A stretch of 64,000 nucleotides of DNA from a bacterium HR10 (lineage in GTDB: Bacteria > Acidobacteriota > Blastocatellia > HR10): positions 56,506-120,505 of the forward strand of contig BEHM01000001.1 of NCBI GenBank assembly GCA_002923315.1, written 5' to 3'. The position numbers were made by a program, and so were the translations under genes. A model generated the notes under the pieces. The model searched no databases and was not told the origin of the DNA. It saw nothing but the letters and a program-made list of their open reading frames with translations. This document shows positions 20,042-37,817 of this stretch, in pieces (position 1 is the first letter of the stretch; each line of letters starts with the position of its first letter).

Positions 20042-20057
20042 CGGCACAATGGTTGCT
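20042..20057 (+). promoter_or_regulatory. candidate sigma-54 (-24/-12) promoter CGGCAC-N5-TTGCT upstream of the pentahaem cytochrome
   Basis: It has GG at -24 and GC at -12 with the correct 5-nt spacing, and lies about 160 nt upstream of ATG 20215. rpoN and a sigma-54 activator are both encoded in the window. Confidence 0.3.
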
Positions 20058-21757: not shown

Positions 21758-23119
21758 TCATACCGGCGAATCGGGTTTGAGCTGATACTTGCGAATCTTA
21801 TTGTAGAGCGTCACGCGATCAATGCCGAGCAACCGCGCGGCCTGCGAGATGTTCCACCTCGTCTCCTGCAGGATCCGCTGGATGTGCTGCCGCTCGACCT
21901 CGGCGAGCGTCTTTCCCACCGGCTGTCCGCGCGCTTCGTTCACCTGCAAGGGCAGGTCTTCGGGGCGGATCTCCCGTCCGCGGCAGACGAGCACCGCGCG
22001 CTCGATGGCATTTTGCAGCTCGCGCACGTTTCCCGGCCAGTCGTAGCGCTCCAACAGCGCCAGGGCTTCGGGCGAGATGCCGAGGATCGGCTTGTTCATG
22101 CTCTGCGCGAACTTCTTGAGGAAATGCTCGGCCAGAAGCGGGATGTCCTCCCGCCGCTCGCGCAGCGGCGGGATGGTGATGGAGAAGACGTTGAGGCGAT
22201 AATACAGGTCCTCGCGGAATCTCCCCTCGGCGACCAGGGCTTCCAGGTCTTTGTTCGTCGCCGCGATCAGACGGAAGTCCACGGGGATCGGCGTATTGCC
22301 GCCGACGCGAAAGATCTTCTTCTCCTCGAGCACGCGCAGCAGATCCACCTGCGTCTTGAGGCTGATGTCGCCGATCTCGTCCAGAAAGAGCGTCCCTCCA
22401 TCGGCCAGCTCGAATTTCCCCTTGCGCCGATAATGGGCGCCGGTGAAGGCGCCCTTCTCATGGCCGAACAGCTCGCTCTCGATCACCCCTTCGGCCAGAG
22501 CGCCGCAGTTGACGATGACGATCGGCATGTAGCGGCGGGGACTGTTGGCGTGAATGGCGCGGGCGACCAACTCCTTGCCCGTCCCGCTCTCCCCGCGGAT
22601 GAGGACCGTCGTATCGGACATGGCGACGAGGCGAATCTGTTCGAGCACTCGCTGAATGGCTGCACTCTGTCCGACGATCTCATGGAACAGCGCCATCTCC
22701 TGAATCCGCTCGCGCAGCCGGACGTTCTCGGCCACCAAGCGCTTCCGCTCGACGGCGTTTCGGATGATGTGCTCCAGCTGATCGGGATCGAAGGGCTTCA
22801 CGATGTAATCGTAAGCACCCTGCTTCATCGCCTCCACGGCCGTTTCGACCGAAGCGTAAGCCGTCATGATGATGATGGAGGCCTCCGGGGCGATCTCCCG
22901 AATGCGCCGCTGCAGTTGCAGTCCGTCCATTCCGGGCATCTTGATATCAATGAGGAAGATGTCGTAGCTCGACTCGGCCAGCTTCTGCAAGGTCTCCTTC
23001 CCCGATCCGGCGACGTCCACCGTGTATCCCTCCTCGCGGAGCCAGTTCCCCAGGGATTCCCGCACGATGGCCTCGTCGTCCACGATCAAAATGCGGATCG
23101 CGCTTTTGGATACCGTCAT
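21758..23119 (-). CDS. sigma-54-dependent response regulator (NtrC/ZraR family: REC-AAA+-HTH)
   Basis: It has a receiver (ILIVDDE...), an AAA+ Walker A (GESGTGKE), the sigma-54 contact motif GAFTGA, and a C-terminal Fis-type HTH. A 4-bp overlap with the upstream kinase gene indicates coupling. Confidence 0.9.
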   Translation of the reverse strand: MTVSKSAIRILIVDDEAIVRESLGNWLREEGYTVDVAGSGKETLQKLAESSYDIFLIDIKMPGMDGLQLQRRIREIAPEASIIIMTAYASVETAVEAMKQGAYDYIVKPFDPDQLEHIIRNAVERKRLVAENVRLRERIQEMALFHEIVGQSAAIQRVLEQIRLVAMSDTTVLIRGESGTGKELVARAIHANSPRRYMPIVIVNCGALAEGVIESELFGHEKGAFTGAHYRRKGKFELADGGTLFLDEIGDISLKTQVDLLRVLEEKKIFRVGGNTPIPVDFRLIAATNKDLEALVAEGRFREDLYYRLNVFSITIPPLRERREDIPLLAEHFLKKFAQSMNKPILGISPEALALLERYDWPGNVRELQNAIERAVLVCRGREIRPEDLPLQVNEARGQPVGKTLAEVERQHIQRILQETRWNISQAARLLGIDRVTLYNKIRKYQLKPDSPV

Positions 23120-24798
23120 AGCCTGCTCTCCATGTGGTGAGGCGCGTCTCCGGAGAAGACCTCGAAGGCGCGATCAGTCTGATCCTCCGCTCCCGTCGGC
23201 GGGGTGAGTGGGAGCCGGAGGGTGAACGTCGTCCCGTGCCCGAGCGCGGACTGCACGTGGATATCCCCCCCGTGCCGGTGAAGGATGCTGAGCACGACGG
23301 AGAGCCCGAGGCCGAGGCTCCCCTCCTTCTCCTTCGTCGTGAAGAAGGGTTCGAAGATGCGCCGTTGCGTCTCTTCATCCATCCCGACGCCGTTGTCGCG
23401 GATCGCGATCTCAACCCGCTGCGCCTCAGGGAGGAAACGCGAGGTGACGGTGAGCATGCCTTCTTCTGGCCGCACCGCTTCGCAGGCATTGATCAGGAGC
23501 GCGACCAGCGCTTGCCGCATCTGCTGTCCGTCGCAGACGACGGGCGGCACGTCCGGATCGAGTTGAACCTCCGTCTGCAGGCTCATCAGCTCGATCTTAT
23601 GCTGAATCAGGCGGAGCGATTGACGGATGAGTTCGTTGACATCATGCGGCTGGAAGTGCGCGCGCGAGGGGCGGACGAATTGCAAGAGGTTCTTCACGAT
23701 CTCCCCGCAGCGGGCCGATTCGCTGGCGATCATCTCCAGATACTGGCGCGCATTGGCGAGGTCCTCGGGCGAGAACCCGTGATCCCCCATCTTCTTGAGC
23801 AGGAGCTTGGCGGTCGTGAGGATGCCGGAGAGGGGGTTGTTGATCTCGTGAGCGACGATGGCGGCGAGTTTCCCGATGGAGGCCATGCGCTCGGCGTGCA
23901 TCATCTGCTCGTGCGTGCGTCGCAGCTCGGCCGTCTTCTCCGCCACGCGCTCCTCCAGGGTGCGCGCCCAGCTCGTCAGCTCCTCATGAGCGCGCTTCAA
24001 CTCCTCGGTCATGGCGTTGAATGACGCCGCCAACTCGCCCAGTTCGTCCCGCGCGGTGAGCGGGATCTTATGGTCGAGGTCGCCAGAGGCGACGCGCTCG
24101 GTCCCCCGCTTCAGGTGCCGGATCGGGACATGGATCATCACGGCGGTGACGGCCACGACAACGAGCGCGACAAAGAGGATGCTCCCCAGGAAGAGGAAGA
24201 AGAGCTGGCGCTGCCCTTCCGCGATGGCCGCGTCCACCGGGGCGAGCGAGAGCGTCACGTCCAACACGCCGAGCACCGATTGCGCCGGCGAGTGCGCGTG
24301 GCAGGAGGCCGTGTAACATCCCGGTTCGTTCTCAATGGGATTGATGAGTCCCAAGATGCGCTCTCCGCGCTCTCCGAGGTACACGCGGACGCGATCCGGA
24401 CGATCCAGGCGAACAAGCGGCTGCTCCTGCGCATGGCAGCCGTAGCAGGCCTCGGCGCGCTTGTCCACGAACGTATTCACCTCGCGCGCATCAGTGGAGA
24501 AGCTGATCCGACCCTCTTTGTCGAAGATGCGGATCTTGTGAATCCCGGGCTGCGCGCCGATGGTGAGGAGCGTGTGATAGATCTCATCCCGATGGTTCTG
24601 CAGCATGCTGTAGCGGAGCCCCCGCTTGATGACGTCGCTCGTGCGATCCGCGCTGGCGATGGTCATCTGCTCCAGGTCGCGCTTGTGCAGCCGGAGGGTT
24701 TGGTAGCCGAGCAGCGAGAAGACAAACGCCATGCTCGCGATGAGCCAAAGGGTCAGCTTCACGCTCACGCTCGATGTCCAGCGTCGCCACCCCCTCAT
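23116..24798 (-). CDS. sensor histidine kinase with haem-c-motif periplasmic domain (NtrB/ZraS-like HisKA)
   Basis: I chose the start at MRGWRRW (24798). The roughly 170-aa periplasmic segment between its two TM helices contains CYGCH (CxxCH) and CYTASCH (Cx4CH). It also has HAMP, an H-box (AHEINNPL) and HATPase_c. Confidence 0.8.
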   Translation of the reverse strand: MRGWRRWTSSVSVKLTLWLIASMAFVFSLLGYQTLRLHKRDLEQMTIASADRTSDVIKRGLRYSMLQNHRDEIYHTLLTIGAQPGIHKIRIFDKEGRISFSTDAREVNTFVDKRAEACYGCHAQEQPLVRLDRPDRVRVYLGERGERILGLINPIENEPGCYTASCHAHSPAQSVLGVLDVTLSLAPVDAAIAEGQRQLFFLFLGSILFVALVVVAVTAVMIHVPIRHLKRGTERVASGDLDHKIPLTARDELGELAASFNAMTEELKRAHEELTSWARTLEERVAEKTAELRRTHEQMMHAERMASIGKLAAIVAHEINNPLSGILTTAKLLLKKMGDHGFSPEDLANARQYLEMIASESARCGEIVKNLLQFVRPSRAHFQPHDVNELIRQSLRLIQHKIELMSLQTEVQLDPDVPPVVCDGQQMRQALVALLINACEAVRPEEGMLTVTSRFLPEAQRVEIAIRDNGVGMDEETQRRIFEPFFTTKEKEGSLGLGLSVVLSILHRHGGDIHVQSALGHGTTFTLRLPLTPPTGAEDQTDRAFEVFSGDAPHHMESRL

Positions 24799-24814: not shown

Positions 24815-26392
24815 TCACGGCCGATGACACACCGCGCATTCCTCCTGCGCGCTGAAGGAGGTCTTCCCGTCATGACATCGTCCGCAATGTCGCGCGTCGT
24901 GCCAGTCGCGCGCGGGACGCGACGAGGCCTCCCCCTCGACCTTCAGGATGTGGAACGGCTCACGATGACACACGGTGCAGTCCGGTCGCTCCCAGTTGAT
25001 GTGCGAAGCATGTCGGAACGTGACCGGCCCCGGGCTCCCCTCCCCCTGCGGGAACGTGACGTCCGGTGGGATGTTCAATCGTTCCAGCCCTTCGGCGATG
25101 TTCGGCTCTTCTTCGAGGCGAGACGGAGAGGCGAGAGCCCGCTCGCGATAGGACAGGCCGCTGTAGGCCACGCCGAGGGCGCCGAAGAAGACGATTCCGC
25201 CGAGGATCAGGATCAGAGGTGTCGTCCCGATCCACGGTCTTCGGAGAACGGCGACGGCCGGTGGGACTGCGACCTCCCGCTCCATCTCCGGAAAGACGGG
25301 CAGATATTTCACCGCCAACCCGAACAGGGCGAATCCCAGTGCTACGATCATGAAGGTCACCGAGAGCTCGGTCCAGCTTGGGAAGTACGAGACGCCGGAG
25401 GAGGCCTCCATCCCCGTGATGCTCACGTTCAACCGGTTCATGATGAAGCCCAGGACGACCAGGAGGGCGGAGACGAACAGGCCGAAATGGTCCGTCCGAA
25501 CGCGGCGCACGCTCAGCAGCAGCATGGGACCGATCACGCCGAGCATCATCTCGGCCAGGAACATCCGCGCCTCGTAGGTCGGCTCCAAGACGTGAGCGAG
25601 TGCACCGCGCCCGACCAGATCCTGAACCTTCAGCACCAGATACACGGCCAGCGCGACGACGATCACTTTGCCCAGATCGGTGAGCAGATCAATCTCCAGT
25701 CGTTTCCGGAATGCCCGGTAGCTCAGGAACGACTCGAAGATGGTCATCGCGCACCCGAGCGCGATGGCCGAGATGAAGAAGAAGACGGGCAGAAGCGGCG
25801 AGTACCAGAGCGGATGCAGCTTCTCCGGCACGATCAGATAGAGCGAACCGAGCGAGGATTGATGAAGCGTCGAGAGGATGACGCCGAGAATGACCAATGG
25901 TACCGTCAGCGCGTGCAGGATCCGAAGTGGCCTTTGAAGTCTCAAGCGCTCGAACACCATGGGGCTGAATTCCAGTGCGAGCACTGTCGTGTAGAGCATG
26001 ACGCACCAGGCCACCTCGAACATCACCGAGTGGGGATTCCACATGACCAGCGGATGCCAGATGCGATACGGGCGTCCCAGATCAAAGAGCAGGGCCACAA
26101 TGACCAGCAGGTACCCGAGGAAGGCCGTGAGGATCGTCGGGCGAATGATCGGGCGAAATCGCTCGATGTTGAAGATGTAGACGACGGCGCTGATGGTGAA
26201 TCCTCCGGCGGCCAGCGCGACCCCGCAGAGGACGTCGAAGCCCACCCACAGGCCCCATGGGAAGGCATCGCTCAGGGCCGTGCTCGCTCCCAATCCTCCG
26301 GTGAACCGGACGACCGTGCTGTAGAGGCCGGCACCCAAGATGACCAGAAACACCAGCTGCCAGAAACCAGGCCGTCGCAGGCGCCACCTCAT
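24815..26392 (-). CDS. NrfD/PsrC-family polytopic membrane subunit fused to a C-terminal cytochrome c7-like trihaem domain
   Basis: I chose the start at MRWRLRRPGFW (26392), preceded by AGGGAGG. It has about 10 TM helices of the NrfD type. The C-terminus (VTFRHASHINWERPDCTVCH...CGRCH...CAVCH) resembles PpcA-type trihaem cytochromes. Confidence 0.7.
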   Translation of the reverse strand: MRWRLRRPGFWQLVFLVILGAGLYSTVVRFTGGLGASTALSDAFPWGLWVGFDVLCGVALAAGGFTISAVVYIFNIERFRPIIRPTILTAFLGYLLVIVALLFDLGRPYRIWHPLVMWNPHSVMFEVAWCVMLYTTVLALEFSPMVFERLRLQRPLRILHALTVPLVILGVILSTLHQSSLGSLYLIVPEKLHPLWYSPLLPVFFFISAIALGCAMTIFESFLSYRAFRKRLEIDLLTDLGKVIVVALAVYLVLKVQDLVGRGALAHVLEPTYEARMFLAEMMLGVIGPMLLLSVRRVRTDHFGLFVSALLVVLGFIMNRLNVSITGMEASSGVSYFPSWTELSVTFMIVALGFALFGLAVKYLPVFPEMEREVAVPPAVAVLRRPWIGTTPLILILGGIVFFGALGVAYSGLSYRERALASPSRLEEEPNIAEGLERLNIPPDVTFPQGEGSPGPVTFRHASHINWERPDCTVCHREPFHILKVEGEASSRPARDWHDARHCGRCHDGKTSFSAQEECAVCHRP

Positions 26393-26471: not shown

Positions 26472-27305
26472 TCATGACGAATTCGTTGAGTCGGATGCCG
26501 AGGATGATCCCGATGGCTCCGGGAGATCACGCGGCGGTTCTCCGGAGTCGCGTCCTCGCTCCTGGCGCTCTCGGCGTTGCACCTCTTGGCGCCGATTCGT
26601 GATCCACCAGATGCCTCCGAGCAGAACGCCCCCGACGATGACGAAGTTGGGGATCTTCTGCAAGACCTGCCACGTCAGCAGGGGGAGCGGCTCCCGGAGC
26701 AGATCCGTTCGGTAGCCCAGGCGCTCGAACGGGACATCCGAGAGCAGCAGGACCGAGGTTCCACCGACTTCCTCCAGGCCGTAAATCCTCGGCACGTACT
26801 TCTGCGGGTGAGCGCGAAGTCGCGCGCGGGCCTCCTCGATCAGCTCCTGACGATCCCCGAACTTCGTCGCTCCCGTGGGACAGACTTCGGCGCATGCCGT
26901 CGGTCGCCCTGCCACGAGGCGATCGGCACACAGATCGCACTTTCGGATGCGCGGCAGGATCTTCCGCCACTCATACTTCGGGATCCCGAAGGGGCATGCC
27001 AGCATGCAATAGCGGCATCCGATGCACCGCTCTTCGTGATAGATGACCGGGCCGGCCGCCGTCTTCTCCAACGCGCCGACCGGACAGACGGACGCGCACG
27101 TCGGGACCTCGCAGTGCATGCAGAGCTGGCGGACGAATCGTCCCCCGCGCTTCTTCACGACCGTATAGGTTTGGTCCGACAGCCGATCCTCCAAAAAGTG
27201 CGTCGCTGTCGGGGGGAGCCGGTTCCGCTCCTTGCACGCTTGGTAGCAGGCGCCGCATCCGATGCACAAGGTCGCATCAAAGAGGAGGCCCTTTTTGCTG
27301 CCCAT
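26472..27305 (-). CDS. 4x[4Fe-4S] ferredoxin-type subunit (NrfC/HybA/PsrB-like) with a C-terminal TM anchor and no signal peptide
   Basis: There are four Cys clusters (CIGCGACYQAC, CMHCEVPTCASVCP, CIGCRYCMLACP, CDLCADRL...CAEVCP) and a C-terminal helix (IVGGVLLGGIWWI). The start is the second ATG (27305), 6 nt after GGAGG. Confidence 0.8.
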   Translation of the reverse strand: MGSKKGLLFDATLCIGCGACYQACKERNRLPPTATHFLEDRLSDQTYTVVKKRGGRFVRQLCMHCEVPTCASVCPVGALEKTAAGPVIYHEERCIGCRYCMLACPFGIPKYEWRKILPRIRKCDLCADRLVAGRPTACAEVCPTGATKFGDRQELIEEARARLRAHPQKYVPRIYGLEEVGGTSVLLLSDVPFERLGYRTDLLREPLPLLTWQVLQKIPNFVIVGGVLLGGIWWITNRRQEVQRRERQERGRDSGEPPRDLPEPSGSSSASDSTNSS

Positions 27306-27555
27306 ACGCATCCTCCACTAGGAGGCGATGCAATTTCCATTCCACGCCTGGATCGTGAGGTCGCTTTCAGCAGCCGGCCACTGAGAGCCGTCCGGTCAAG
27401 CGGTTACAGCAGGGTGGCTCCCTCCTCTCATCCCCCGCGACTGCGCGCGAGGGAGAGGGGTGGGGCAAATCACTCGCTTCCTGAGGCGCGATTCGCGCCT
27501 CCGGCGAGGCTTCGACCTCAAGTGAGGGTCGGCAAAACGCCTTCCTTCGCTCGCT

Positions 27556-28248
27556 TCACCCCTCGGCTGGATGCGGGCTGCGCAGGAATGTTCGGGTGAA
27601 CTCCTCCCAACTGGCTTCATCCAGAGCCTCCAGGACGCCATCGGTCCACTGCCCGCCGTCCTGCAGGACGTGTCCGAGAGCCGCCTGCGGCATCGGCCGC
27701 CACGTGAGGAACTCCTTGAAGCGTTCGATCTCGCACTGGAGCCACGCCCGAGCTTCCTCGGCGACCAGCAGATGGCGTAAGTGCGCCGCCAGGTTCTTCG
27801 GCGTCAGCGTGCAGATCCATCCATCTTCGTACGGATCCATTCGCCCCGTCTCTGGCTGGCGCATGAGGATCTCATTGACCGCGCTCACCACTCCATCGAG
27901 CGGGGCGCGGAAGACGGCCCGTCGGCCCCCCTGCGTGATGGCGAAGAGCGGATCACCCCGCCGCACCATGACGCCGACTTTCGGCAAGTCCACGGCATCC
28001 ACGCGCCCGATGGCTCGACGCGCGAACTCATCCATGCCGACGAATGTCCGTCCGCTCGGTTCCAGGCGCACCCACGTGTGCCCTTCGTCCAGGAAGAGAC
28101 CGGCAGGGATGGAGACGGTCTCGAAGGCGAGCGTCGGACGCAGCGCCGGTCGCCTCACGGGACGTCCCTGTCGGGCCTCAGCCCATTGGACGACGGAATC
28201 CACGAGGATGAATCCGATGATCGTGAGAATGACAAAGAGAGCGACCAT
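27556..28248 (-). CDS. membrane-anchored glycine-cleavage-H-like (GcvH-fold) protein without the lipoyl-lysine
   Basis: It has an N-terminal TM (MVALFVILTIIGFILV). The GcvH-like core reads HTWVRLE...VGMDEFA...VDLPKVG...PYEDGWICTL. The position aligned to the lipoyl-Lys (ESVKA in GcvH) reads TQGGRRA. A strong RBS (GGAGGTGA) precedes the start. Confidence 0.6.
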   Translation of the reverse strand: MVALFVILTIIGFILVDSVVQWAEARQGRPVRRPALRPTLAFETVSIPAGLFLDEGHTWVRLEPSGRTFVGMDEFARRAIGRVDAVDLPKVGVMVRRGDPLFAITQGGRRAVFRAPLDGVVSAVNEILMRQPETGRMDPYEDGWICTLTPKNLAAHLRHLLVAEEARAWLQCEIERFKEFLTWRPMPQAALGHVLQDGGQWTDGVLEALDEASWEEFTRTFLRSPHPAEG

Positions 28249-28251
28249 AGT

Positions 28252-29184
28252 TCACCTCCTCTCCGGAGATCGCCTCCGAGGCGCACTCACCGTGCGCCCG
28301 ATCCGTGGCTGCAAGAACCGCGCGATCACCTGTTCCCATCGCGCGGGACCAAGGACTTCCATGAGCGATTCCATCGCAGCCCGCGTCAGCATCTCCTGCG
28401 CCGTGCACTCCCCTTCAAGGGGAACGCCCCCATCTTGGAGCGTGCGGCCTGCGGCAGAGACTTCTGGGGGCGTCCCCAAAGCGCGCAAGGCCGCGCGAAC
28501 CGCTCGGTGCAGCTTCGAAACTTCCCGCTCATACCAAGAACGCGCCTGCTCCCCATAGAGCAGGTGCTTCAAACTCTCCCGCAAACGTTCCGGTCGCAAC
28601 AGTAGCAGCCATCCGTCCCCATACGGATCGTGATTGATGAGGGAGGGGTATCGCGTGAGCCGCTCGTTGAGCTGAAGGATGACACCCGTCAGAGGAGCGG
28701 ACAGAATGATCTCCCCGGCCTGATGCGCCAGCTTACCCAGCGGGCGTCCGGCGATCACGCGCGCGCCCACTTCCGGAAAGCTCACCTGATAAATCCGCCC
28801 GAGGAGCTTCTGTCCGAAATCATCCAGTCCGATTCGCACGTCCCCCCGCCGCTCGATGCGCGCCCACACATGCGTCGGATGGTAGAAGAGCGCCTCCGCC
28901 ATGTGGAAGCCACCTCGGCTGAAGAGGCGGTGAGACGCCGTGCGCTCACCGTGAGATCGTGAGCTTCCCTCCTCACCGGCGATCTCCCTCGTCCGCTCCC
29001 GAAGGGCGCGGTCAAAAGGGCAATGGTCGCATTCGTAGTCGCGATCGCAAAGTTTGTAGTCCACGATCCCCGCCAACATCCACACGCACTGGAGCACGGG
29101 AGCAGCACCCTCGCGCTCGATGGAGAGCGGATGAGCTCCAGGGCCGGTGGCCTCGGTCGGTCCTCTCGACAGCACCTCGTCCAT
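28252..29184 (-). CDS. GcvH-like protein with an N-terminal Cys-rich motif
   Basis: I chose the start at ATG 29184 (MDEVLSRG), preceded by GGGAGGG. The Cys motif is CVWMLAGIVDYKLCDRDYECDHCPFD, followed by a GcvH-like core (THVWARIE...IGLDDFGQKLLG...HDPYGDGWLLL). The raw ORF start at 29331 is a TTG inside a regulatory palindrome, which is why I rejected it. Confidence 0.55.
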   Translation of the reverse strand: MDEVLSRGPTEATGPGAHPLSIEREGAAPVLQCVWMLAGIVDYKLCDRDYECDHCPFDRALRERTREIAGEEGSSRSHGERTASHRLFSRGGFHMAEALFYHPTHVWARIERRGDVRIGLDDFGQKLLGRIYQVSFPEVGARVIAGRPLGKLAHQAGEIILSAPLTGVILQLNERLTRYPSLINHDPYGDGWLLLLRPERLRESLKHLLYGEQARSWYEREVSKLHRAVRAALRALGTPPEVSAAGRTLQDGGVPLEGECTAQEMLTRAAMESLMEVLGPARWEQVIARFLQPRIGRTVSAPRRRSPERR

Positions 29185-29210: not shown

Positions 29211-29226
29211 GGCAATCGATGTGCCG
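29211..29226 (-). promoter_or_regulatory. candidate sigma-54 promoter (minus strand: CGGCAC-ATCGA-TTGCC) for the GcvH-like operon
   Basis: On the minus strand there is GG at -24 and GC at -12 with 5-nt spacing. The predicted TSS is near 29200, about 16 nt before ATG 29184 and spanning its RBS. Confidence 0.4.
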
Positions 29227-29317: not shown

Positions 29318-29332
29318 GTTGAATTCTTCAAC
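29318..29332. promoter_or_regulatory. palindromic operator/enhancer site 1 (GTTGAA-TTC-TTCAAC)
   Basis: A perfect 6-3-6 inverted repeat. The extended 18-bp sequence CGTTGAATTCTTCAACGC is identical to site 3. Confidence 0.45.
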
Positions 29333-29384: not shown

Positions 29385-29399
29385 GTTGAAGAATTCAAC
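29385..29399. promoter_or_regulatory. palindromic operator/enhancer site 2 (GTTGAA-GAA-TTCAAC, the reverse-complement form)
   Basis: A perfect inverted repeat. Its centre is 67 bp from site 1 and 22 bp from site 3. Confidence 0.45.
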
Positions 29400-29406
29400 A
29401 CCTGTC

Positions 29407-29421
29407 GTTGAATTCTTCAAC
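29407..29421. promoter_or_regulatory. palindromic operator/enhancer site 3 (GTTGAA-TTC-TTCAAC)
   Basis: A perfect inverted repeat, about 61 bp upstream of the -24 element of the plus-strand sigma-54 promoter. Confidence 0.45.
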
Positions 29422-29474: not shown

Positions 29475-29490
29475 TGGCATGCGGCTTGCA
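29475..29490 (+). promoter_or_regulatory. sigma-54 promoter TGGCAT-GCGGC-TTGCA for the C_GCAxxG-dihaem gene
   Basis: A near-consensus -24 (TGGCAY) and -12 (TTGCA) with 5-nt spacing. The predicted TSS is near 29500. RBS GGAGGGA lies at 29524-29530 and ATG at 29537. Confidence 0.5.
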
Positions 29491-29536: not shown

Positions 29537-30340
29537 ATGAGGAAGACGCTGACGCGAAAAGAGTTCCTCACGTTGACGACCAAATGTGCCACATGCGCCG
29601 CCGTCGGTGCAGCTGGGCTGAGCCTCCTCGGAAGGGAAGGGATCGCCCAGATGGATCTTCCGCCGTGGCCGTGGCCCTATCGAAAGCTCGATCCCGAGTA
29701 CGTGCGCAAGCTCGGGCACGAGGGGTATTGGGAGAAAGGATATGGCTGCGCCTATGGCGCTTTCAGAGCCATCATCATCCCATTGCGCGAGGCGGTCGGG
29801 TATCCCTATACGATGATCCCCACGGAGCTCATGATCTGGGGGCACGGGGGCGTCGTCGGATGGGGCGGAACGTGTGGGGCGCTCCTTGGGGCCAGCGCCG
29901 CTATTCAGCTCGTGTGCGATAAGCCGACGGCCGATCGGCTCATCCATGAATTGCAGGGGTGGTACACGCAAGCGCTCCTGCCGACGGACATCAGCAACGA
30001 GTACGCGCAGACAGGGCAGTTCTTCGTCCAGAAGTACACGCGACCACTCCCGCAGAATGCCGCAGGCTCACCCCTGTGTCACATCTCGGTGACCTTGTGG
30101 TGCGAGCGTTCGGGATTCACCGCTTCCTCACTTGAACGCAAAGAGCGCTGCGGCCGGCTCACAGGTGATGTCGCCGCTCGCGCCGTGGAGCTATTGAATC
30201 AATGGGCTGATGGTCAATTCCAGAGCATCTATGTCCCACCGGAGTCCATCGCGACCTGCCTCACGTGTCACGGGGATAAGGGGCTGGACAACGTGAAGGC
30301 CAAGATGAACTGCACGCAGTGCCACGCGCCGCATCCGTGA
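29537..30340 (+). CDS. C_GCAxxG_C_C-family putative redox protein fused to a C-terminal dihaem cytochrome c, with a Tat-like (RK) signal peptide
   Basis: The signal is MRKTLTRKEFLTLTTKCATCAAVGAAG. The family motifs are GYGCAYGAF and GGTCGALLGA. Two CxxCH motifs (CLTCH, CTQCH) sit in the last 40 aa. Confidence 0.65.
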   Translation: MRKTLTRKEFLTLTTKCATCAAVGAAGLSLLGREGIAQMDLPPWPWPYRKLDPEYVRKLGHEGYWEKGYGCAYGAFRAIIIPLREAVGYPYTMIPTELMIWGHGGVVGWGGTCGALLGASAAIQLVCDKPTADRLIHELQGWYTQALLPTDISNEYAQTGQFFVQKYTRPLPQNAAGSPLCHISVTLWCERSGFTASSLERKERCGRLTGDVAARAVELLNQWADGQFQSIYVPPESIATCLTCHGDKGLDNVKAKMNCTQCHAPHP

Positions 30341-30483: not shown

Positions 30484-32331
30484 TTAGGAGACTCCTCGAA
30501 CGGGGGGCGCGCTCCCGTTCAGGAGCGCTTCATCGGGGAGCTCCAGTCGGAGCTCTTGGAGGCTTCCGAGCAAAAGCTCACGCACTTCGGCAGAGCGTGA
30601 GGCGGCGAGCGCCTGGCGAACGACCTCGCGCACGCGCGTCAGCTCGCATGCTCGCACGAAGTCCTTGATGAGCGGGATCGCGCGCGGGCGCATGCTCAAG
30701 ATACGGGCTCCCAAACCCAGCAGGACCAGCGCATGCAGCGGATGCGCGGCCATCTCGCCGCAGACTTCAAGGGGGCGGCCTGCGCGCTCGGCCGCCTGGA
30801 TCACGTGCCGCAGAGCGCGCAGCACGGCCGGATGCAGCGGATCATAGAGCGAGGCCACGCGATCGTTATCCCGATCCACCGCCAGCAGGTACTGGATGAG
30901 ATCGTTGGTCCCCAGGCTGAGGAAATCCGCCACGGCAGCCAGCTCATCGGCGAGCCACACGGCGGCAGGCGTCTCGATCATCACGCCCACGGGAAGACGA
31001 TCCGGCGCGGCGATCCCTTCTGCGCGCAGTTCACGGCATGCGGTCTGAAGCAGGTGTCGGACCTGCTCGACTTCCTCCAAACTCGTGATCAGGGGGAGGA
31101 CGAGGCGCAGATTCCCGAAGGCGGCGGCCCGCACGATGGCGCGCAATTGGGTTTTGAGAACCTCCGGCGCGCGCAGCGAGAACCGAATGGCGCGGAGCCC
31201 GAGCGCCGGATTCCGCTCGGGGAGCCATGGCTCCGAAGACTCGGACTCCATCTGCCGGTCGCGCAGCGCATGAAGGGTGCCGAGCGCGGCCATCTGATTT
31301 TCGTCCCAATCCACCGTGCGAATGGCGACCCCGTCGCGCCCGGCCACTTCCGCGGCCTGACGATACGCCTCCAGTTGCAGCTCTTCCGAGGGCAGTTCCG
31401 GAGCTGCCTGCAGGAAGAGAAATTCCGTGCGGAGCAAGCCAATCCCGCATGCGCCGAAACGGTGCAGGTCATCCAATTCAGAGAGACGCTCGATGTTCGC
31501 GCGGATGGTGATCGGAACGCCGTCGCGCGTCATCGTGGGGAGAGGGGCGCGTGCCTGCCATCGGATCCAATGCTGTTCGCGCTCCTGGCGCTGCCGCTCA
31601 TAATGCTGAAGGACATCTGGGGAGGGACGGACGAAGACGAGCCCTCGCGTCCCATCCACGAGGACGAGCGCCTGATCTTCGATCTGCGCGAGCGCCCCAC
31701 GAAGACCCGATACGGCCGGGATGCCCAGCCCACGGGCGAGAATGGCCACGTGCGACGTCCATCCCCCTGTGCCGAGGATCAAGCCCGCGATGCGCTGCGG
31801 ATCGAGTTCCCCAAGCAGGCTTGGCGGGAGCGTCTCGCTCACCAGGACCGCACTCTCCGGAAAGGCGCAGGTGGAGCGGTCCCCCGAGAGCACCCTGAGC
31901 AATCGGTTCGCCACATCTTCGATATCACTGCCACGCTCGCGCAAATCATCGTCCTTGATCTCCGCATAGATGGCCAGGATGCGATCAGTGACCAGTTTCA
32001 CCGCCCATTCGGCGTTGACGGCGTTGGTGCGGATGAGGCTTTCGATCTCGCCGAGGATCCCCGCATCCTCCAACATCAGCACGTGCGCATCCAGGATATA
32101 GGCGTGTTCTTTCCCCAGGGCGTGCTCCATGCGTTGCCGCAGGACGCGCAATTGCTCGCGCGCGATGCCCACGGCCTTGTGGAAGCGGGCCACCTCGGAC
32201 TCGATCTCCTGAGGAGCGAGCCGCCGGCGGAAGATCACTCGTCCGCGCCAAGGCGAGTGCACGGCCGGTCCCCACCCGATCCCCGGCGAGATGCCCAGTC
32301 CGCGGAGTATGATCTCCGAATTCGCCGTCAC
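30484..32331 (-). CDS. ptsI: phosphoenolpyruvate-protein phosphotransferase (PTS enzyme I)
   Basis: Full-length EI similarity, with the active His context GGWTSHVAILARGLGIPAV and a PEP-utilising C-terminal domain. Confidence 0.9.
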   Translation of the reverse strand: MTANSEIILRGLGISPGIGWGPAVHSPWRGRVIFRRRLAPQEIESEVARFHKAVGIAREQLRVLRQRMEHALGKEHAYILDAHVLMLEDAGILGEIESLIRTNAVNAEWAVKLVTDRILAIYAEIKDDDLRERGSDIEDVANRLLRVLSGDRSTCAFPESAVLVSETLPPSLLGELDPQRIAGLILGTGGWTSHVAILARGLGIPAVSGLRGALAQIEDQALVLVDGTRGLVFVRPSPDVLQHYERQRQEREQHWIRWQARAPLPTMTRDGVPITIRANIERLSELDDLHRFGACGIGLLRTEFLFLQAAPELPSEELQLEAYRQAAEVAGRDGVAIRTVDWDENQMAALGTLHALRDRQMESESSEPWLPERNPALGLRAIRFSLRAPEVLKTQLRAIVRAAAFGNLRLVLPLITSLEEVEQVRHLLQTACRELRAEGIAAPDRLPVGVMIETPAAVWLADELAAVADFLSLGTNDLIQYLLAVDRDNDRVASLYDPLHPAVLRALRHVIQAAERAGRPLEVCGEMAAHPLHALVLLGLGARILSMRPRAIPLIKDFVRACELTRVREVVRQALAASRSAEVRELLLGSLQELRLELPDEALLNGSAPPVRGVS

Positions 32332-32618
32332 GATCCCAATCGCTCCTCCTCTTCACCGAATTTCGACTCGATCAACCGGCAGATGGCTTCGATCGCCTCC
32401 ACCTCGTCCTCTCCGGATGTGGTGATGTCCAGATGCGTCCCCGCCGATGCCGCCAGCAGCAGGACGCCGAGGATGCTCTTGGCGTCCGCCGTCTGTCCCG
32501 TATCGGAGCGGGCGAGCGTGATCGCGCTGCGGAACCGATTGGCCGCCTGCACGAGCTTGGCGGCTGCGCGCGCATGCAATCCCAGACGGTTGGCCACCTG
32601 CACCGTTCGTCGCTGCAT
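32328..32618 (-). CDS. ptsH: phosphocarrier protein HPr
   Basis: An His15 context (NRLGLHARAAAKL) and a Ser46 region (GQTADAKSILGVL). Confidence 0.85.
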   Translation of the reverse strand: MQRRTVQVANRLGLHARAAAKLVQAANRFRSAITLARSDTGQTADAKSILGVLLLAASAGTHLDITTSGEDEVEAIEAICRLIESKFGEEEERLGS

Positions 32619-32624
32619 CGCCGG

Positions 32625-33038
32625 CTATCGCTTCGCGGGCGTGAGGATCTCGCTGGCCAAATAGATGTTCTTCTGCCCCTGTTCTTTGACCTTGCGCGCT
32701 ACGGTGAGCAGATCGTCGTTCGGGTCTTGATTGGCGAGCTTGAGAATCATGGGCAGATTGACGCCGGTGACGATCTCCACCGGCTCGACGCCCAGGAAGG
32801 TGGCCGCGATATTGGTCGGCGTTCCTCCGAACATATCCGTCAGCAACAGCACGCCGCGCCCGCTGTTGACCCGCTCGATGGCCCGACGGATCGTCTCGCG
32901 CGCGACCTCCACATCATCATGCCAGCCGATGGAGACGGCCGTGATGTGGCTGATCTGACCGACGATCATCTCCGCGGCGTTCACCAGTTCCGTGGCCAGT
33001 TGTCCATGCGTGATGACGACGCCTCCGATGAGTCCCAT
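32625..33038 (-). CDS. PTS EIIA component, mannose/fructose family
   Basis: The sequence MGLIGGVVITHGQLA...LTDMFGGTP is the EIIA-Man fold with the phosphorylatable His in ITHG. Confidence 0.8.
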   Translation of the reverse strand: MGLIGGVVITHGQLATELVNAAEMIVGQISHITAVSIGWHDDVEVARETIRRAIERVNSGRGVLLLTDMFGGTPTNIAATFLGVEPVEIVTGVNLPMILKLANQDPNDDLLTVARKVKEQGQKNIYLASEILTPAKR

Positions 33039-33173
33039 CCTGCTTCCTCCGGCGTCGGCGAAGCGACGAACCGCTCGCCTCCCCGACGCATGCGCTCGAG
33101 CTCCGTGCCTTCCGTGCTTTCTTATTGTACCTCAAGGCGTCGGCTCGCGTCCTCATCGGGAGCTGCCGTGTGC

Positions 33174-34049
33174 TCAGAGTTTGTCTATATCCCGGTGCGT
33201 GACGCGAAGCTTATAGCCCTCGCGTCGCAGCACCCGCGCCAGCTCCTCGACGATCATCACCGACCGGTGGCGTCCTCCCGTACACCCGATCCCGATCGTC
33301 ACATAGCTTCGTCCCTCGCGCTGGTAACGCGGAAGAAGGAATCGGAGGAGGTTCTCCAGGTGCGCGATGGTCTCCATCGTATCCGGGTGCGCGCGCATGA
33401 AGTCAATGACGCGCGCATCTTGTCCCGAGAGCGGGCGCAGCTCGGGCACAAAGTGCGGGTTCGGCAGGAAGCGGACATCAAAGAGCAGGTCCAATCCCGG
33501 GGGAACGCCATGCTTGAACCCGAAGCTGAGGAGCGTGACCGTCATCTCCAGCAGCGCGTCAGCAGTGCCGAAGCGTTCGATCACGTAGCGGCGCAGCGTG
33601 TGCACCGTGTGCTCGGACGTGTCAATGATGAGGTCGGCGCGAGCGCGGATCTCTTGCAACGCCTCCCGTTCGCGCGCGATGGCCGTGGGCAGGTCCGTCT
33701 CGGCGTCGGCCAGCGGATGCGGACGTCGCGTCTCGGAGAAACGGCGCAGCAGGACCTCGGGGCTCGCCTCGAAGAAGATGATCCGCACGTTGGTCCCTTG
33801 CCGCCGCAACTCGTCGTAGAGGCGGGGGAAATCGGGGAGGAATTGGCGCTCGCGGATGTCAATGACGATGACGGCGCGACGGAGCGTCTCCGCGCTGGCG
33901 CGACACAATTCCACAAAGGGGGGGATCAGGTGAATCGGCAGATTGTCCACGCAGAAATATCCGAGGTCCTCGAAGGCCTTGACCGCCGAGGTCTTCCCCG
34001 AACCGCTCAAGCCTGTGAGGATGAGGATGTGAGGGGAAGCGAAAGCCAT
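33174..34049 (-). CDS. rapZ: RNase adapter protein RapZ (YhbJ)
   Basis: A Walker A (LTGLSGSGKTSA) and C-terminal GCTGGRHRS, the typical RapZ signature. Confidence 0.85.
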   Translation of the reverse strand: MAFASPHILILTGLSGSGKTSAVKAFEDLGYFCVDNLPIHLIPPFVELCRASAETLRRAVIVIDIRERQFLPDFPRLYDELRRQGTNVRIIFFEASPEVLLRRFSETRRPHPLADAETDLPTAIAREREALQEIRARADLIIDTSEHTVHTLRRYVIERFGTADALLEMTVTLLSFGFKHGVPPGLDLLFDVRFLPNPHFVPELRPLSGQDARVIDFMRAHPDTMETIAHLENLLRFLLPRYQREGRSYVTIGIGCTGGRHRSVMIVEELARVLRREGYKLRVTHRDIDKL

Positions 34050-34052
34050 GCG

Positions 34053-35015
34053 TCACGAGGATTCGAGCGCGTCCCCGGCGACCAGCGCATCGTGCGCGCG
34101 CACGAACTGCCGCATCGCATCAATGCCCCGGCGTTTCAACAGGTGATTGCGCACGGCCACCTCGACGAGCGTCGTGAGATTGCGCCAGAACGTGACGGGA
34201 AGGCGAATCAGGGGGATCGAGATGTCCAGCAGGCGGAGCGTCTCCTCCTGCAAGCCCAGGTGGTCATAGTCTCGCTGCGGATCCCAGCGCTCGAACGCGA
34301 TGGCCAGATCCACCGAGGCTTCTTCGGCGAGCGCCGCGACGCCGAACAATTCTCGAATGTCCAGGATGCCGAGCCCCCGGATCTCCATGTGCCCCCGCGC
34401 GCGTTCCGGAGCCAGGCCGATCAACCGATCCGATCCGATGGCGCGCACCTCGACGACATCATCGGCGACGAGCCGATGCCCGCGCTGAATGAGATCGAGC
34501 GCACATTCGCTCTTGCCCAGTCCGGATTCGCCGAGCAGCAATACGCCGACGCCGAAGACCTCGACCAGGACGCCGTGCATCCAGCACCGGGGGGCGAGAA
34601 CCCGCTGCAGAAACTCCGTGAGCTTCAGAATCGCCGTCGAGCTGAGGCGCGAGGAGACCAGGACCGGAACGCGATGCCGCTCGGCCGCGTGGAGGAATTC
34701 CGGCGGGGGGGTGAGCCCCTTGGTCACGAGGACGCACGTGATCGCCTCCCAGGGGAGGTGCTCGATGGCGCGGTGTCGCTCCGCCGGCGAGAGATGGTGC
34801 AGGAAGGTCACCTCGCTCTGCCCCACGATTTGGATCCGCCCCGCGTGCACATAGTGCGTGAATCCCGCCAGCGCCAGCCCGAGCTTTTGAATGCGCGGCG
34901 AGCGGATCGTCCTGGTCACACCCTCAGCGCCGACGATCACGCGCAAGTCCAGATCGGCTGGCGCGCCGGTGAGCAGCTCGGCGACGGTGATCTCGGGCGT
35001 GAGGGGAGCGGTCAT
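34053..35015 (-). CDS. hprK: HPr kinase/phosphorylase
   Basis: I chose the start at MTAPLTPEITVAEL (35015), preceded by GAGGG. It has a Walker A (GESGLGKSE) and the HprK signature LVADD...EIRGLGI. Confidence 0.85.
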   Translation of the reverse strand: MTAPLTPEITVAELLTGAPADLDLRVIVGAEGVTRTIRSPRIQKLGLALAGFTHYVHAGRIQIVGQSEVTFLHHLSPAERHRAIEHLPWEAITCVLVTKGLTPPPEFLHAAERHRVPVLVSSRLSSTAILKLTEFLQRVLAPRCWMHGVLVEVFGVGVLLLGESGLGKSECALDLIQRGHRLVADDVVEVRAIGSDRLIGLAPERARGHMEIRGLGILDIRELFGVAALAEEASVDLAIAFERWDPQRDYDHLGLQEETLRLLDISIPLIRLPVTFWRNLTTLVEVAVRNHLLKRRGIDAMRQFVRAHDALVAGDALESS

Positions 35016-35022
35016 CGCGCCC

Positions 35023-35538
35023 TCAGGGTTCGATGAGTCCGAGGTGACCATCGGTGCGCTTGTAGAGGACGGCCACCCGATCGGTCTCCGCATTGCGGAA
35101 GACGAGGAAGTGATCGTTCGATTTCAAGAGCAGCTCGGCCGCCTCGTCCGGCGTCAAGGGCTTCACCGAATATCGGGGCGTGCGCACGATGCGCACCTCT
35201 GGCGCCGAAGATTCCGCGGGCAACGTCTTCACGAGCTTGCGCGTCGCCCGTCGGCGGGCCGCGAACTTCTCCTTCTGCTTGAGCGTTTGTCGCAGGAGGC
35301 GATCAATGGCCTCGGTGACCGAGCTGTAGAGGTCGTCCGTCTCGGCCGTCCCCGTGAACTGATGATCTCGCCAGGTGACGAGGATCTCCGTCAGGAACCG
35401 ATGCTTCTCAGCAGCGAGGATGACGTGCACCTTGGCCGCGTCATCGAGGACGCGGCCGATCTTCTCCAGTGCCCGCCGAAGGCGCTTCTCGATCGTGGGC
35501 GTCAGCTCCACATTTCGCGTCGTGAGTTCCAGATTCAT
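35023..35538 (-). CDS. hpf: ribosome hibernation promoting factor (long form)
   Basis: The N-terminal sigma-54-modulation-protein fold (MNLELTTRNVELTP...) plus a C-terminal dimerisation extension. Its start overlaps the rpoN stop (ATGA). Confidence 0.85.
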   Translation of the reverse strand: MNLELTTRNVELTPTIEKRLRRALEKIGRVLDDAAKVHVILAAEKHRFLTEILVTWRDHQFTGTAETDDLYSSVTEAIDRLLRQTLKQKEKFAARRRATRKLVKTLPAESSAPEVRIVRTPRYSVKPLTPDEAAELLLKSNDHFLVFRNAETDRVAVLYKRTDGHLGLIEP

Positions 35539-37010
35539 CCTCCCCTCCCCGCATGAAGTAGCGCGCGATCCCGCGAGCTGGGAATCCCCAGCTGCTTCCG
35601 ATACTTCGTCACCGTGCGGCGCGAGAGTCGAACGCCCTCGCGCTCCAGCAAGCGCACCAGATCATCGTCCGTCAGCGGCGCTCGGGGATCCTCCTGCTCG
35701 ATGAGCTTTTGCAGGCGCAGCTTGAGGACGCGCGTGGAGATCTGCTCGCCGTTCTCCTTCCGCACCCCTTCGGTGAAGAAACGGCGCAGTTCGATGAGCC
35801 CCTGAGGGGTATCAATGTACTTGTTGCTCACGATGCGGCTGACGGTCGAGAGCGAGAGGCCCAGCTCGGCCGCGATGTCCTTGAGCAGCATCGGCTTCAG
35901 ATATTCGGGGCCGTAGTCGAGGAAGTCGCGCTGTCGCCGAACGATGGCCTCACAGACGCGGTAGATCGCCCGACGGCGATGCTCGATGTTCCTCAGCAAC
36001 TCGACAGCCGAGCGAAATCGCTCCCGCACGAAATCCCGCGCCTCTTTCGGGAGCTGCCCGCTCTTGAGGAGGCGCCGATAGTAGGGGTTGATCCGCAGGT
36101 GCGGCAGGCCCTCGTCGTTGAAGAGGATGACGTAGCGATCGTCCACCTTCACGATGCTCGCCTCGGGCACGATGTACATCGGCGGCGCAGCGCCGAGATT
36201 CCGTCCCGGGCGCGGGTCCAATTGCCGGATCACCTCCAGCTCCTCGCGCACCGTCTGCAGCGGGAGGCCGAGGCGTTCGGCCAGCTCCGGGAGCCGATGC
36301 GGATGCAAATCCCACAGATGATCGCGCACCAGGCGCGCCGCCAGCCGATCCTCCCATCCCCGCGCGCGAAGCTGCAACAGCAAACACTCGCGCAGATCGC
36401 GCGCGCCGATACCCGGCGGATCCAGGCTCTGCACGAGCGCGAGCGCGCGCTCGACGACCTCGTCGGACCATCCCCCAAGGGCTTTGATCTCCTCCAGCGT
36501 CGCCTCCAAATACCCGTCGCTGTTCAGACACCCGATGATCGCCTCCGCCGCCTGCCGCACCTCATCGTCCGATGGGGCCATGACGCGGAGTTGCTCCAAC
36601 AGCGCCTCGTACAGGGACGGACGGCTCGGCGTCAGCTTCTCCAGAAGCGAGACCTCCTCCTCCGGCGAAGGCTCCGCCCACGTCGTGCGCGGAGCCGGAT
36701 CGAGATAGTTCTGGAAGAAGTCCTCGAAATCCACTTCCTCGAAGGGATCTCGCGGCTTGGGTTCCAGCTCCACTGGTTCGGACGATCCATGGGCTTCCTC
36801 ACGCGCTTCGCGCTCAGTATTGCGCAGCGCGGCCTCCGCCGAGGGAACCACCTCGACCGCTTCCTCCAGCACGGGATTCTCTCGCAGCTCCTGCCGGATG
36901 AGGGTGAGCAACTCCAGCTTGGTCATGGCCAGCAGGTCAATACGCTGCTTGAGCTGCGGCGTCAGCGTCAGACGCTGCGTCAGTCCCGGCGCGATCTTGA
37001 CCGACGGCAT
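35535..37010 (-). CDS. rpoN: RNA polymerase sigma-54 factor
   Basis: An N-terminal activator-interacting region I (LTQRLTLTPQLKQRIDLL) and a C-terminal RpoN box (ARRTVTKYR). Confidence 0.9.
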   Translation of the reverse strand: MPSVKIAPGLTQRLTLTPQLKQRIDLLAMTKLELLTLIRQELRENPVLEEAVEVVPSAEAALRNTEREAREEAHGSSEPVELEPKPRDPFEEVDFEDFFQNYLDPAPRTTWAEPSPEEEVSLLEKLTPSRPSLYEALLEQLRVMAPSDDEVRQAAEAIIGCLNSDGYLEATLEEIKALGGWSDEVVERALALVQSLDPPGIGARDLRECLLLQLRARGWEDRLAARLVRDHLWDLHPHRLPELAERLGLPLQTVREELEVIRQLDPRPGRNLGAAPPMYIVPEASIVKVDDRYVILFNDEGLPHLRINPYYRRLLKSGQLPKEARDFVRERFRSAVELLRNIEHRRRAIYRVCEAIVRRQRDFLDYGPEYLKPMLLKDIAAELGLSLSTVSRIVSNKYIDTPQGLIELRRFFTEGVRKENGEQISTRVLKLRLQKLIEQEDPRAPLTDDDLVRLLEREGVRLSRRTVTKYRKQLGIPSSRDRALLHAGRGG

Positions 37011-37013
37011 AGC

Positions 37014-37817
37014 TCAAAGCTGGAAGTGTTCGCCCAAATAGACGCGCCGCACCTCCGGATCCGCCGTCAGCGTCTCCGGCGTGCCGGCGCGAAAGATCCG
37101 CCCCTCGCTGAGGAGATAGGCGCGATCGGTGATGCGCAGCATCTCCCGCACATTGTGATCCGTGATGAGGATCCCAATCCCTCGCGCCTTCAACCCGAGG
37201 ATGATGCGCTGCAGATCGAAGACCGCCAGCGGATCAATCCCCGTCAGGGGTTCATCCAGAAGCAGGAAACGTGGCTCCATGACGAGCGCGCGCGCGATCT
37301 CCGTCCGCCGACGCTCCCCCCCCGAGAGGGCGTAGCCTTTGACGTGACGCACGGCGGCCAGCCCCAGTTCCTCCAGAATCTCCTCGAGTCGGCGCCGACG
37401 CTCGGCGCGGCTCATCTTCCGCCGCTCCAAAATGGCGAGGATGTTCTCCTCCACCGTCAGACGACGGAAGATCGAGGGCTCCTGCGGGAGGTAGACCAAA
37501 CCGCACCGCGCTCGAAGATACATGGGCAAGGCGGTGATCTCGCGCCCATCGAGGAAGACGGCGCCACGATCGGGCCGCTCCAGCCCGACGATCAGATGAA
37601 AGGTCGTCGTCTTTCCCGCTCCGTTAGGACCGAGCAGGCCGACGATCTCTCCCGGATGCACATCGAGGGAGACGTTGGTGAGGACACAGCGCCCCCGATA
37701 GTATTTCGTCAATCCGGAGGCGCGCAAGACCGCTCCGTCCACAGGGAGCCGAGCGCGATGGGGCAAGGGCTCATGGCCGAGCGCCGCCTCGTTCGCCTCT
37801 GTGATCAGCATGCTCAC
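37014..37817 (-). CDS. lptB: LPS export ABC transporter ATP-binding protein
   Basis: ABC ATPase motifs ([23 protein letters not shown]). Its position directly upstream of rpoN is the canonical place for lptB. Confidence 0.85.

Follow-up and report, generated by a model that had tools for sequence, protein, structure and literature searches.

How can one polypeptide carry both a signal for twin-arginine translocation (Tat), which exports folded domains, and the attachment sites of c-type haems, which the cytochrome c maturation (Ccm) system is expected to fill on unfolded substrates of the Sec pathway? The question is raised by a gene of the bacterium HR10 (Acidobacteriota, Blastocatellia), at positions 29,537 to 30,340 of a window of 64,000 nucleotides from contig BEHM01000001.1; all positions given here are those of this window. 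A first-pass annotation, made from the letters alone, described the product as a C_GCAxxG_C_C-family domain without assigned function fused to a dihaem cytochrome c behind a Tat-like signal. By homology, the gene is instead a divergent member of the known family of split-Soret cytochromes c (Ssc). We consider it likely that it encodes a periplasmic Ssc with a [2Fe-2S] cluster on four Cys and two bis-His c-haems in its tail, that a Tat-type signal in which the second Arg is Lys (R-K) exports it, that the tail is loaded with haem after export, and that the protein is expressed from a sigma-54 promoter as the redox partner of a divergently encoded, quinone-linked module. The features of the gene are as follows.

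29537..30340, + strand: ssc-like gene, split-Soret cytochrome c homologue, 267 aa (open reading frame; NF047622; PDB 1H21; Foldseek)
29537..29647, + strand: predicted Tat-type signal peptide, residues 1-37 (sequence; pLDDT below 50 in the AlphaFold2 (AF2) model; comparison of the h-region and c-region)
29552..29569, + strand: T-R-K-E-F-L, the S/T-R-R-x-F-L-K consensus with the second Arg replaced by Lys (clade logo; RR in the same column of relatives)
29666..30241, + strand: folded C_GCAxxG_C_C / Ssc core domain, residues 44-235, with four Cys and H182 (PF09719; invariant columns; motif counts; pLDDT about 90)
29747-29749, 29873-29875, 30077-30079 and 30149-30151, + strand: codons of the conserved C71, C113, C181 and C205, respectively (invariant columns)
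30257..30271, + strand: haem-binding motif 1, CLTCH, residues 241-245 (sequence; alignment; motif counts)
30311..30325, + strand: haem-binding motif 2, CTQCH, residues 259-263, followed by a conserved C-terminal His-Pro with H266 (sequence; alignment; motif counts)

The open reading frame starts with ATG, with GGAGG 8 nt upstream, and all the motifs initially quoted are present in its product: TRKEFL at residues 6-11, GYGCAYGAF (C71), GGTCGALLGA (C113) and the two CxxCH. Pfam PF09719 (C_GCAxxG_C_C) matches residues 78-218 (E=1.7e-11; 44.7 bits for a cut-off of 27). The top model is NCBIfam NF047622, split-Soret cytochrome c (E=3.7e-57; 193.8 bits). A phmmer search of the PDB gave one real match, 1H21 (E=1.1e-44; residues 44-264 of the query aligned with 17-234 of the 247 of the chain), the Ssc of Desulfovibrio desulfuricans ATCC 27774. 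The AF2 model, built on a 15-sequence alignment, has a mean pLDDT (predicted local distance difference test) of 77, reaching about 90 in the core, and its sole significant Foldseek match in the PDB is also 1h21_A (E=1.2e-12; TM-scores of 0.65 and 0.71; 38% identity). The biochemistry of Ssc has been known since the 1990s and the family has been structurally solved since 2003. According to the 2003 description of 1H21, which PMC5701242 cites, each monomer reportedly holds two bis-His c-haems in its C-terminal part and a [2Fe-2S] cluster on four Cys of the N-terminal domain. The dimer is said to bring the haems, stacked and bis-His-ligated, to the subunit interface, with one axial His coming from the other monomer, and the spectrum to show a split Soret band. 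A C_GCAxxG_C_C domain followed by two haem sites is hence the defining architecture of the family, and because the window gene matches it (1H21, NF047622) we do not see in it a new fusion; the initial impression of an unusual one has to be given up. Homologues even in such distant organisms as Pyrodictium and Natranaerofaba are already annotated as split-Soret cytochromes.

The window protein also stays well below the equivalog cut-off of NF047622 (400 bits), and therefore we place it in a divergent subfamily rather than among equivalogs of the Desulfovibrio protein. The cut-off of TIGR01909 is not reached either (18.5 for 47.4). By identity, the nearest named genomes are an unclassified metagenome-assembled genome (MAG) at 97%, 'Bacterium HR08' at 94%, an Acidobacteriota MAG at 86% and a Blastocatellia MAG at 85%. 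Identical copies are found in three sequencing runs. The GC content is about 64%.

A word-indexed search gave 477 homologues of the product, and going exhaustively through 1.84 billion representatives of clusters with HMMER gave 666 (E≤1e-3), 131 of them with E≤1e-30; searching with the 1H21 sequence gave 353 in the Desulfovibrio clade. In a 15-sequence alignment that covers both clades, R7, C71, C113, C181, C205, H182, C241/C244/H245, M257 and C259/C262/H263 are invariant. The four Cys motifs, the two CxxCH, 18-20 residues apart, and a His soon after the second CxxCH are near-universal in 356 near-full-length sequences, and the Cys motifs are counted in 107 to 120 of the 120 close homologues. 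Of the close homologues, 120/120 have the CxxCH pair, as do 111/114 of those from Desulfovibrio and 104/122 of the distant representatives, which removes the initial worry that these motifs might not be conserved. By the work on 1H21, C71, C113, C181 and C205 are presumably the ligands of the [2Fe-2S] cluster. The conserved H182 and H266 are candidate distal ligands of the haems.

The signal peptide has an n-region MRKTLTRKEF, a weakly hydrophobic h-region LTLTTKCATCAAVGAAGLSLL and a basic c-region GREGIA; cleavage after GIA is our guess. Essentially all Desulfovibrio Ssc precursors start with x-S/G/N-R-R-x-x-L-x-G-L-G-G, and the usual motif of the family at the homologous position is the canonical [ST]RRxF[LI]. 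Among the 150 best 50%-identity representatives, about 111 are N-terminally intact: 97 carry RR and 8 carry RK, the remainder of the 150 being mostly truncated. Judged by these signals, the Ssc family overall is a twin-arginine family. Among the best 120 matches of the window protein's own clade, 101 (about 84%) have R-K and 6 have R-R. This clade includes Acidobacteriota, Kryptoniota, Ignavibacteriota, Calditrichota and Bacteroidota, with some Chloroflexota, Firmicutes and Desulfobacterota, and its logo reads [LI]-[TS]-R-K-[ED]-F-[LF]-[KR], where position +3 is F in 117/118. The RK signals are as long as those of the RR relatives, with the best 15-residue Kyte-Doolittle window of the h-region at 1.65 for 1.62-1.66 in the latter, and the c-region is basic in 81%; the comparison set was that of the RR relatives. 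In the window protein the signal is about 37 aa long, the best window reaches 1.82 and the c-region contains R33. Most relatives have RR in this very column, RR and RK replace one another inside the clade, and the rest of the consensus is kept; on these comparative grounds the window signal is most probably of Tat type and its RK is unlikely to be coincidental. The first-pass annotation had proposed a Tat-like signal and had envisaged that it might turn out to be Sec-type; the proposal is strengthened and the caveat finds no support in the comparison.

The R-K version itself deserves attention. Published single-Arg Tat signals are reportedly K-R rather than R-K. The Tat system is described as tolerating poorly even a conservative Lys in place of Arg, with rare natural exceptions (PMC7317946), and for this reason the fixation of RK in a large clade is genuinely, though only modestly, odd. 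It is not a lineage-wide dialect of Tat: this idea is ruled out by five loci (L012, L020, L028, L039, L064) in which an RK-type ssc gene lies less than 10 kb from a gene with a canonical RR signal (TRRAFF, SRRDFL, NRRNFL, TRRYFL and SRRSFF). The RK signals are also conserved past the motif (homologues P0001-P0120), with Lys at +9 in 92/118, then Y-A-A-G, and Gly at +17 in 102/118. This additional conservation hints at recognition by a dedicated chaperone or at some other constraint.

If the signal is of Tat type, when are the haems attached? The conflict between Tat and Ccm that the first-pass annotation pointed out is a legitimate question, although it is not specific to this copy and applies to the Ssc family as a whole. 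In the AF2 model, confidence is about 90 for residues 40-235 and the pLDDT falls below 50 for residues 239-267, which hold both CxxCH and the terminal His-Pro. The part that holds the haem motifs is short and, by prediction, disordered, which offers a plausible way out of the conflict: this tail of some 30 residues, unstructured in the model, is probably loaded with haem after export. We infer the following order of events. The core domain would fold and receive its Fe-S cluster in the cytoplasm. Tat would then export this core with the hydrophilic, CxxCH-containing tail of about 30 residues still unstructured, the periplasmic cytochrome c maturation system would put haem on the exposed tail, and dimerisation together with His ligation would finish the haem domain. 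No periplasmic pathway of Fe-S assembly is known. The conserved set of Cys ligands suggests, from the sequence only, that the cofactor is inserted in the cytoplasm.

The predicted regulation of ssc points to its possible partners. Upstream of the gene we find the following elements.

29475..29490, + strand: predicted sigma-54 promoter of ssc, TGGCATGCGGCTTGCA (-24 GG / -12 GC; sole perfect match in the window; conserved in relatives)
29318-29332, 29385-29399 and 29407-29421, no strand assigned: three palindromic putative enhancer sites (upstream activating sequences), GTTGAA-N3-TTCAAC (sole matches in 64 kb)
29212..29225, - strand: divergent sigma-54-type element GGCAC-N5-TTGC, 27 nt upstream of a GcvH-like gene (conserved block in the alignment with L004)

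The first-pass annotation had placed the gene behind the best sigma-54 promoter of the window, and rightly so: TGGCATGCGGCTTGCA is the only zero-mismatch match to TGGCAY-N5-TTGCW in the 64 kb. Perfect sites lie equally far upstream of the ssc-like gene in the orthologous loci L004-L008 and L027, and in L009 and L010 of Kryptoniota. The palindrome occurs three times in the window for an expectation of 0.04, and it is kept in L004, L006 and L008. In L004, an orthologous locus at 85% identity, the intergenic DNA has diverged and the sigma-54 and palindrome elements remain as conserved islands. The predicted sigma-54 promoter of ssc is thus real and conserved as far as sequence comparison can tell. 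It would drive ssc, and the three enhancer sites would be common to ssc and to a divergent sigma-54 operon, which encodes the following proteins.

28252..29184, - strand: GcvH-like protein 1, with a Cys-rich N-terminus and no lipoyl-lysine (PF01597; gene call in L001; alignment)
27556..28248, - strand: GcvH-like protein 2, with an N-terminal transmembrane (TM) helix and no lipoyl-lysine (family search; alignment)
26472..27311, - strand: HmcB/HybA-like four-cluster ferredoxin, with no signal peptide; its C-terminal TM helix precedes a basic tail (NCBIfam HmcB, 1.7e-76; HybA, 1.4e-63)
24815..26392, - strand: HmcC/HybB (NrfD-family) membrane subunit with a C-terminal triheme c7 domain (HmcC, 5.3e-104; TIGR04257 triheme domain)
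23116..24798, - strand: HAMP histidine kinase, a putative haem-c sensor by its conserved periplasmic CxxCH (family search; orthologue comparison)
21758..23119, - strand: NtrC-type sigma-54 activator (response regulator), which might bind the palindromes (family search)

The operon proteins were compared by tblastn with 80 named loci. Linkage of ssc with the genes for the GcvH-like proteins, HmcB, HmcC, the histidine kinase and the sigma-54 activator was found in five Acidobacteriota-like loci, five Kryptoniota loci (52-63% identity) and two Ignavibacteriota loci, and in part in one Clostridia MAG. It is because ssc shares its sigma-54 promoter type and enhancer sites with the operon encoding this module that we read the protein as a redox partner. 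Most likely, Ssc is a conditionally induced, accessory periplasmic redox partner that is co-regulated with the quinone-linked module. As such it would be induced under certain conditions and act in the periplasm with the HmcBC-like proteins, and we infer an electron-transfer partnership between them.

Several observations weigh against parts of this interpretation. With 193.8 bits for an equivalog cut-off of 400, functional identity with the Desulfovibrio Ssc is not guaranteed. As Lys is poorly tolerated in model Tat substrates (PMC7317946), the RK signal could be of low efficiency or operate in another way. The literature on Ssc that we read provided annotations and expression data and no experiment showing that any Ssc depends on Tat. 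There are no tat or ccm genes among the about 40 open reading frames scanned in the 64-kb window. The low pLDDT of the tail may only mirror the haem and the dimer partner missing from the model, and not disorder in vivo, and the 15 sequences behind the model make for a shallow alignment. Finally, Desulfovibrio has ssc as an orphan gene, most genomes of the Fibrobacterota-Chlorobiota-Bacteroidota group have it in other contexts, and three other Acidobacteriota (L091-L093) have the full GcvH/HmcBC operon with no ssc within 8 kb. Since the operon occurs without an adjacent ssc, such a partnership would be facultative.

Most homologues from Bacteroidota, Ignavibacteriota, Kryptoniota and Calditrichota have about 100 additional C-terminal residues after the Ssc domain (homologues P0003-P0120; loci L009, L010, L013, L014, L020, L021, L080). 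This tail is a type-A sorting domain of the type IX system for secretion (T9SS) (PF18962/PF13860; TIGR04183 at 38.9 and 31.9 bits for a cut-off of 23). The tailed homologues carry the Tat-like RK signal as well. Because cargo of the T9SS is described as Sec-dependent (PMC5445135), such relatives would be unusual Fe-S/haem proteins going from Tat to the T9SS and thence to the surface.

Could the signal be read by Sec after all? The R-K would then be nothing but a positively charged n-region, the protein would be exported unfolded and its haems attached in the conventional way, and the Cys motif would bind no cluster or acquire one after export. Such a route would remove the conflict between Tat and Ccm, it would suit a change that Tat tolerates poorly and to which Sec is blind (PMC7317946), and most members of the clade are apparently cargo of the T9SS, for which Sec dependence is the described rule (PMC5445135). 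Yet the motif is the Tat consensus but for one residue, with S/T at -1, F at +3 in all but one of 118 signals, L/F at +4 and K/R at +5. Most of the family has RR aligned with it, RR and RK swap inside the clade, and the signal is long, weakly hydrophobic and endowed with a basic c-region. Moreover, all four Cys of the cluster are still invariant, and Fe-S clusters are not known to be assembled in the periplasm. We hold the Sec route to be very unlikely. One might speculate on the contrary that the fixed R-K marks a distinct regime of maturation in a large subfamily of Ssc, i.e. an attenuated or chaperone-read Tat signal that would put in order Fe-S insertion, Tat export, haem attachment after export and, for Bacteroidota, Ignavibacteriota, Kryptoniota and Calditrichota, secretion by the T9SS. 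We regard this as doubtful, though worth keeping in mind. If it were true, the T9SS-tailed relatives would be the first cargo passing from Tat to the T9SS, with an Fe-S/dihaem protein on the cell surface, and the family would be a natural test case for Tat export and cytochrome c maturation on one polypeptide.

Two other readings accept the signal and differ on what it does. The N-terminal segment might remain uncleaved and tether Ssc to the cytoplasmic membrane, on its outer face and beside the HmcBC-like module. The window protein indeed has no canonical AxA site (GIA-QM), AF2 builds a helix from residues 7 to 28, the segment is unusually conserved past the motif (the K at +9 and the AAG core), and one homologue has been described as 'exported and attached to membrane' (PMC8359318). 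But the closest relative has a good AQA-E site, the crystallised Desulfovibrio Ssc is soluble and starts after the signal (a chain of 247 aa for precursors of about 279 aa), and the T9SS-tailed relatives need to be released to be secreted, so that we find an anchor unlikely. Alternatively, Ssc might be the subunit whose Tat signal co-exports the signal-less, tail-anchored ferredoxin, as FdnG does for FdnH, the two forming with the HmcC/HybB-like subunit a three-subunit quinol oxidoreductase. The alignments of the ferredoxin with HmcB and HybA begin at model positions 36-39, so that precisely the signal segment is missing, and its C-terminal TM helix and basic tail predict a periplasmic Fe-S domain (N-out). 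Orthologues in L020 and L059 carry their own RR signals, which shows that the domain is periplasmic, and Ssc is the sole protein of the cluster with a Tat-type signal. There is also a precedent: a Tat-dependent Fe-Fe hydrogenase has been proposed to carry along a tail-anchored ferredoxin that lacks a signal (PMC10924467). Against this stand the three Acidobacteriota mentioned above, with the full operon and the same signal-less ferredoxin but no ssc in the surrounding 8 kb; they led us to downgrade this reading. Besides, the ferredoxin has a much larger family than Ssc (6672 matches for 477), the linked Ssc of Kryptoniota and Ignavibacteriota has a T9SS tail and would leave the periplasm, and ssc is transcribed divergently, outside the operon. 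Co-export of this kind seems to us quite unlikely. We thus favour a periplasmic Ssc that would be exported by Tat, loaded with haem afterwards and only facultatively associated with the module.

The neighbourhood of ssc has other particularities. The GcvH-like pair leads the divergent operon, and in both proteins, aligned with the E. coli reference, G, A or E stands at the position of the lipoyl-lysine. The TM-anchored GcvH-like protein is kept with the module across phyla. The fusion of the HmcC/HybB-like subunit to a triheme domain, with three CxxCH, is present in the Acidobacteriota loci and absent from the orthologues of Kryptoniota and Ignavibacteriota. The single CxxCH of the kinase (CYGCH) is found in every full-length orthologue from Acidobacteriota, Kryptoniota and Ignavibacteriota; by its sequence, the kinase is a candidate covalent haem-c sensor of redox state or of a ligand, feeding the sigma-54 activator. 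Just upstream of the HmcB-like gene, a sigma-54-like site with one mismatch, TGGAATGGAAATTGCA (27329-27344, - strand), has perfect counterparts at the equivalent place in L007 and L027, which suggests an internal sigma-54 promoter in the operon. Three further features flank these genes.

21164-21745, - strand: archaemetzincin-type (M54) metallopeptidase, ending the operon and kept with it in Acidobacteriota and Kryptoniota, including loci without ssc
20215-21033, + strand: pentahaem c-type cytochrome with a Sec-like signal, beside the cluster, with a sigma-54-like GGCAC-N5-TTGC at 20043-20056
30484-37817, - strand: complete lptB-rpoN-hpf-hprK-rapZ-EIIA(Man)-HPr-ptsI cluster, directly downstream of ssc and convergent with it

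The pentahaem cytochrome is absent from L004, L007 and L027. It is called as a 99-aa fragment in L001 and at its full 272 aa in L002, and may therefore vary between strains. The cluster from lptB to ptsI is a regulatory operon of sigma-54 and the nitrogen phosphotransferase system, with rpoN 5 kb downstream of ssc. No intrinsic terminator was detected downstream of ssc.

These results bear on more than one gene. Members of the Ssc family would unite a cytoplasmic Fe-S cluster and periplasmic c-haems on a single Tat-targeted polypeptide, and in the literature that we searched the order of these steps has not been addressed experimentally. Given the reported intolerance to Lys, it is unexpected that R-K should be fixed in a clade of several phyla in which neighbouring substrates retain R-R. 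The conserved pair of divergent sigma-54 units also provides the first genomic hint of a physiological partner for Ssc, in the form of a quinone-linked module with its HmcB/HybA-like ferredoxin, HmcC/HybB-like subunit, GcvH-like proteins and putative haem-c sensor kinase.

How does this system compare with those already known? The closest is the Ssc of D. desulfuricans, with which the window protein shares length, domain order and fold, 38% identity across the mature chain, the four Cys of the [2Fe-2S] site, the histidine of an LCH motif, the C-terminal His-Pro, two CxxCH spaced by 18-20 residues and a precursor with a predicted Tat-type signal. It differs by R-K in this signal, where Desulfovibrio has R-R, and by an insertion of 7 residues, at about 158-165, relative to 1H21. 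The Desulfovibrio gene is an orphan among housekeeping genes, whereas the window gene is predicted to be under sigma-54 control and is linked to HmcBC-like genes. The putative redox-active proteins of PF09719/TIGR01909 resemble the product over residues 78-218, which score above the Pfam gathering threshold, but they are typically single domains of about 120-140 aa, to which the window protein adds a signal peptide, an extended N-terminal part and a dihaem tail. For the signal, the nearest parallel lies in natural Tat signals that lack one Arg, for example TtrB of Salmonella (Hinsley et al. 2001, cited in PMC7317946): there too, an Fe-S protein has one conservative Arg to Lys change in an otherwise consensus Tat motif. 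Unlike such cases, the change described here is fixed in a multi-phylum clade while neighbouring Tat substrates keep RR. As for the module, combinations of a tail-anchored ferredoxin, a HybB-like subunit and a periplasmic cytochrome have been published in a survey from the Palmer laboratory (PMC10924467). As in these, and as in the HmcABC complex, HmcB/HybA-like and HmcC/HybB-like genes are paired here with periplasmic haem proteins, and a sigma-54 regulator adjoins one of the published examples. Yet the ferredoxin of the window has no Tat signal of its own, its cytochrome partner would be an Ssc with Fe-S and two haems instead of a cytochrome with eight or 16 haems, and its cluster includes GcvH-like proteins and a haem-c kinase.

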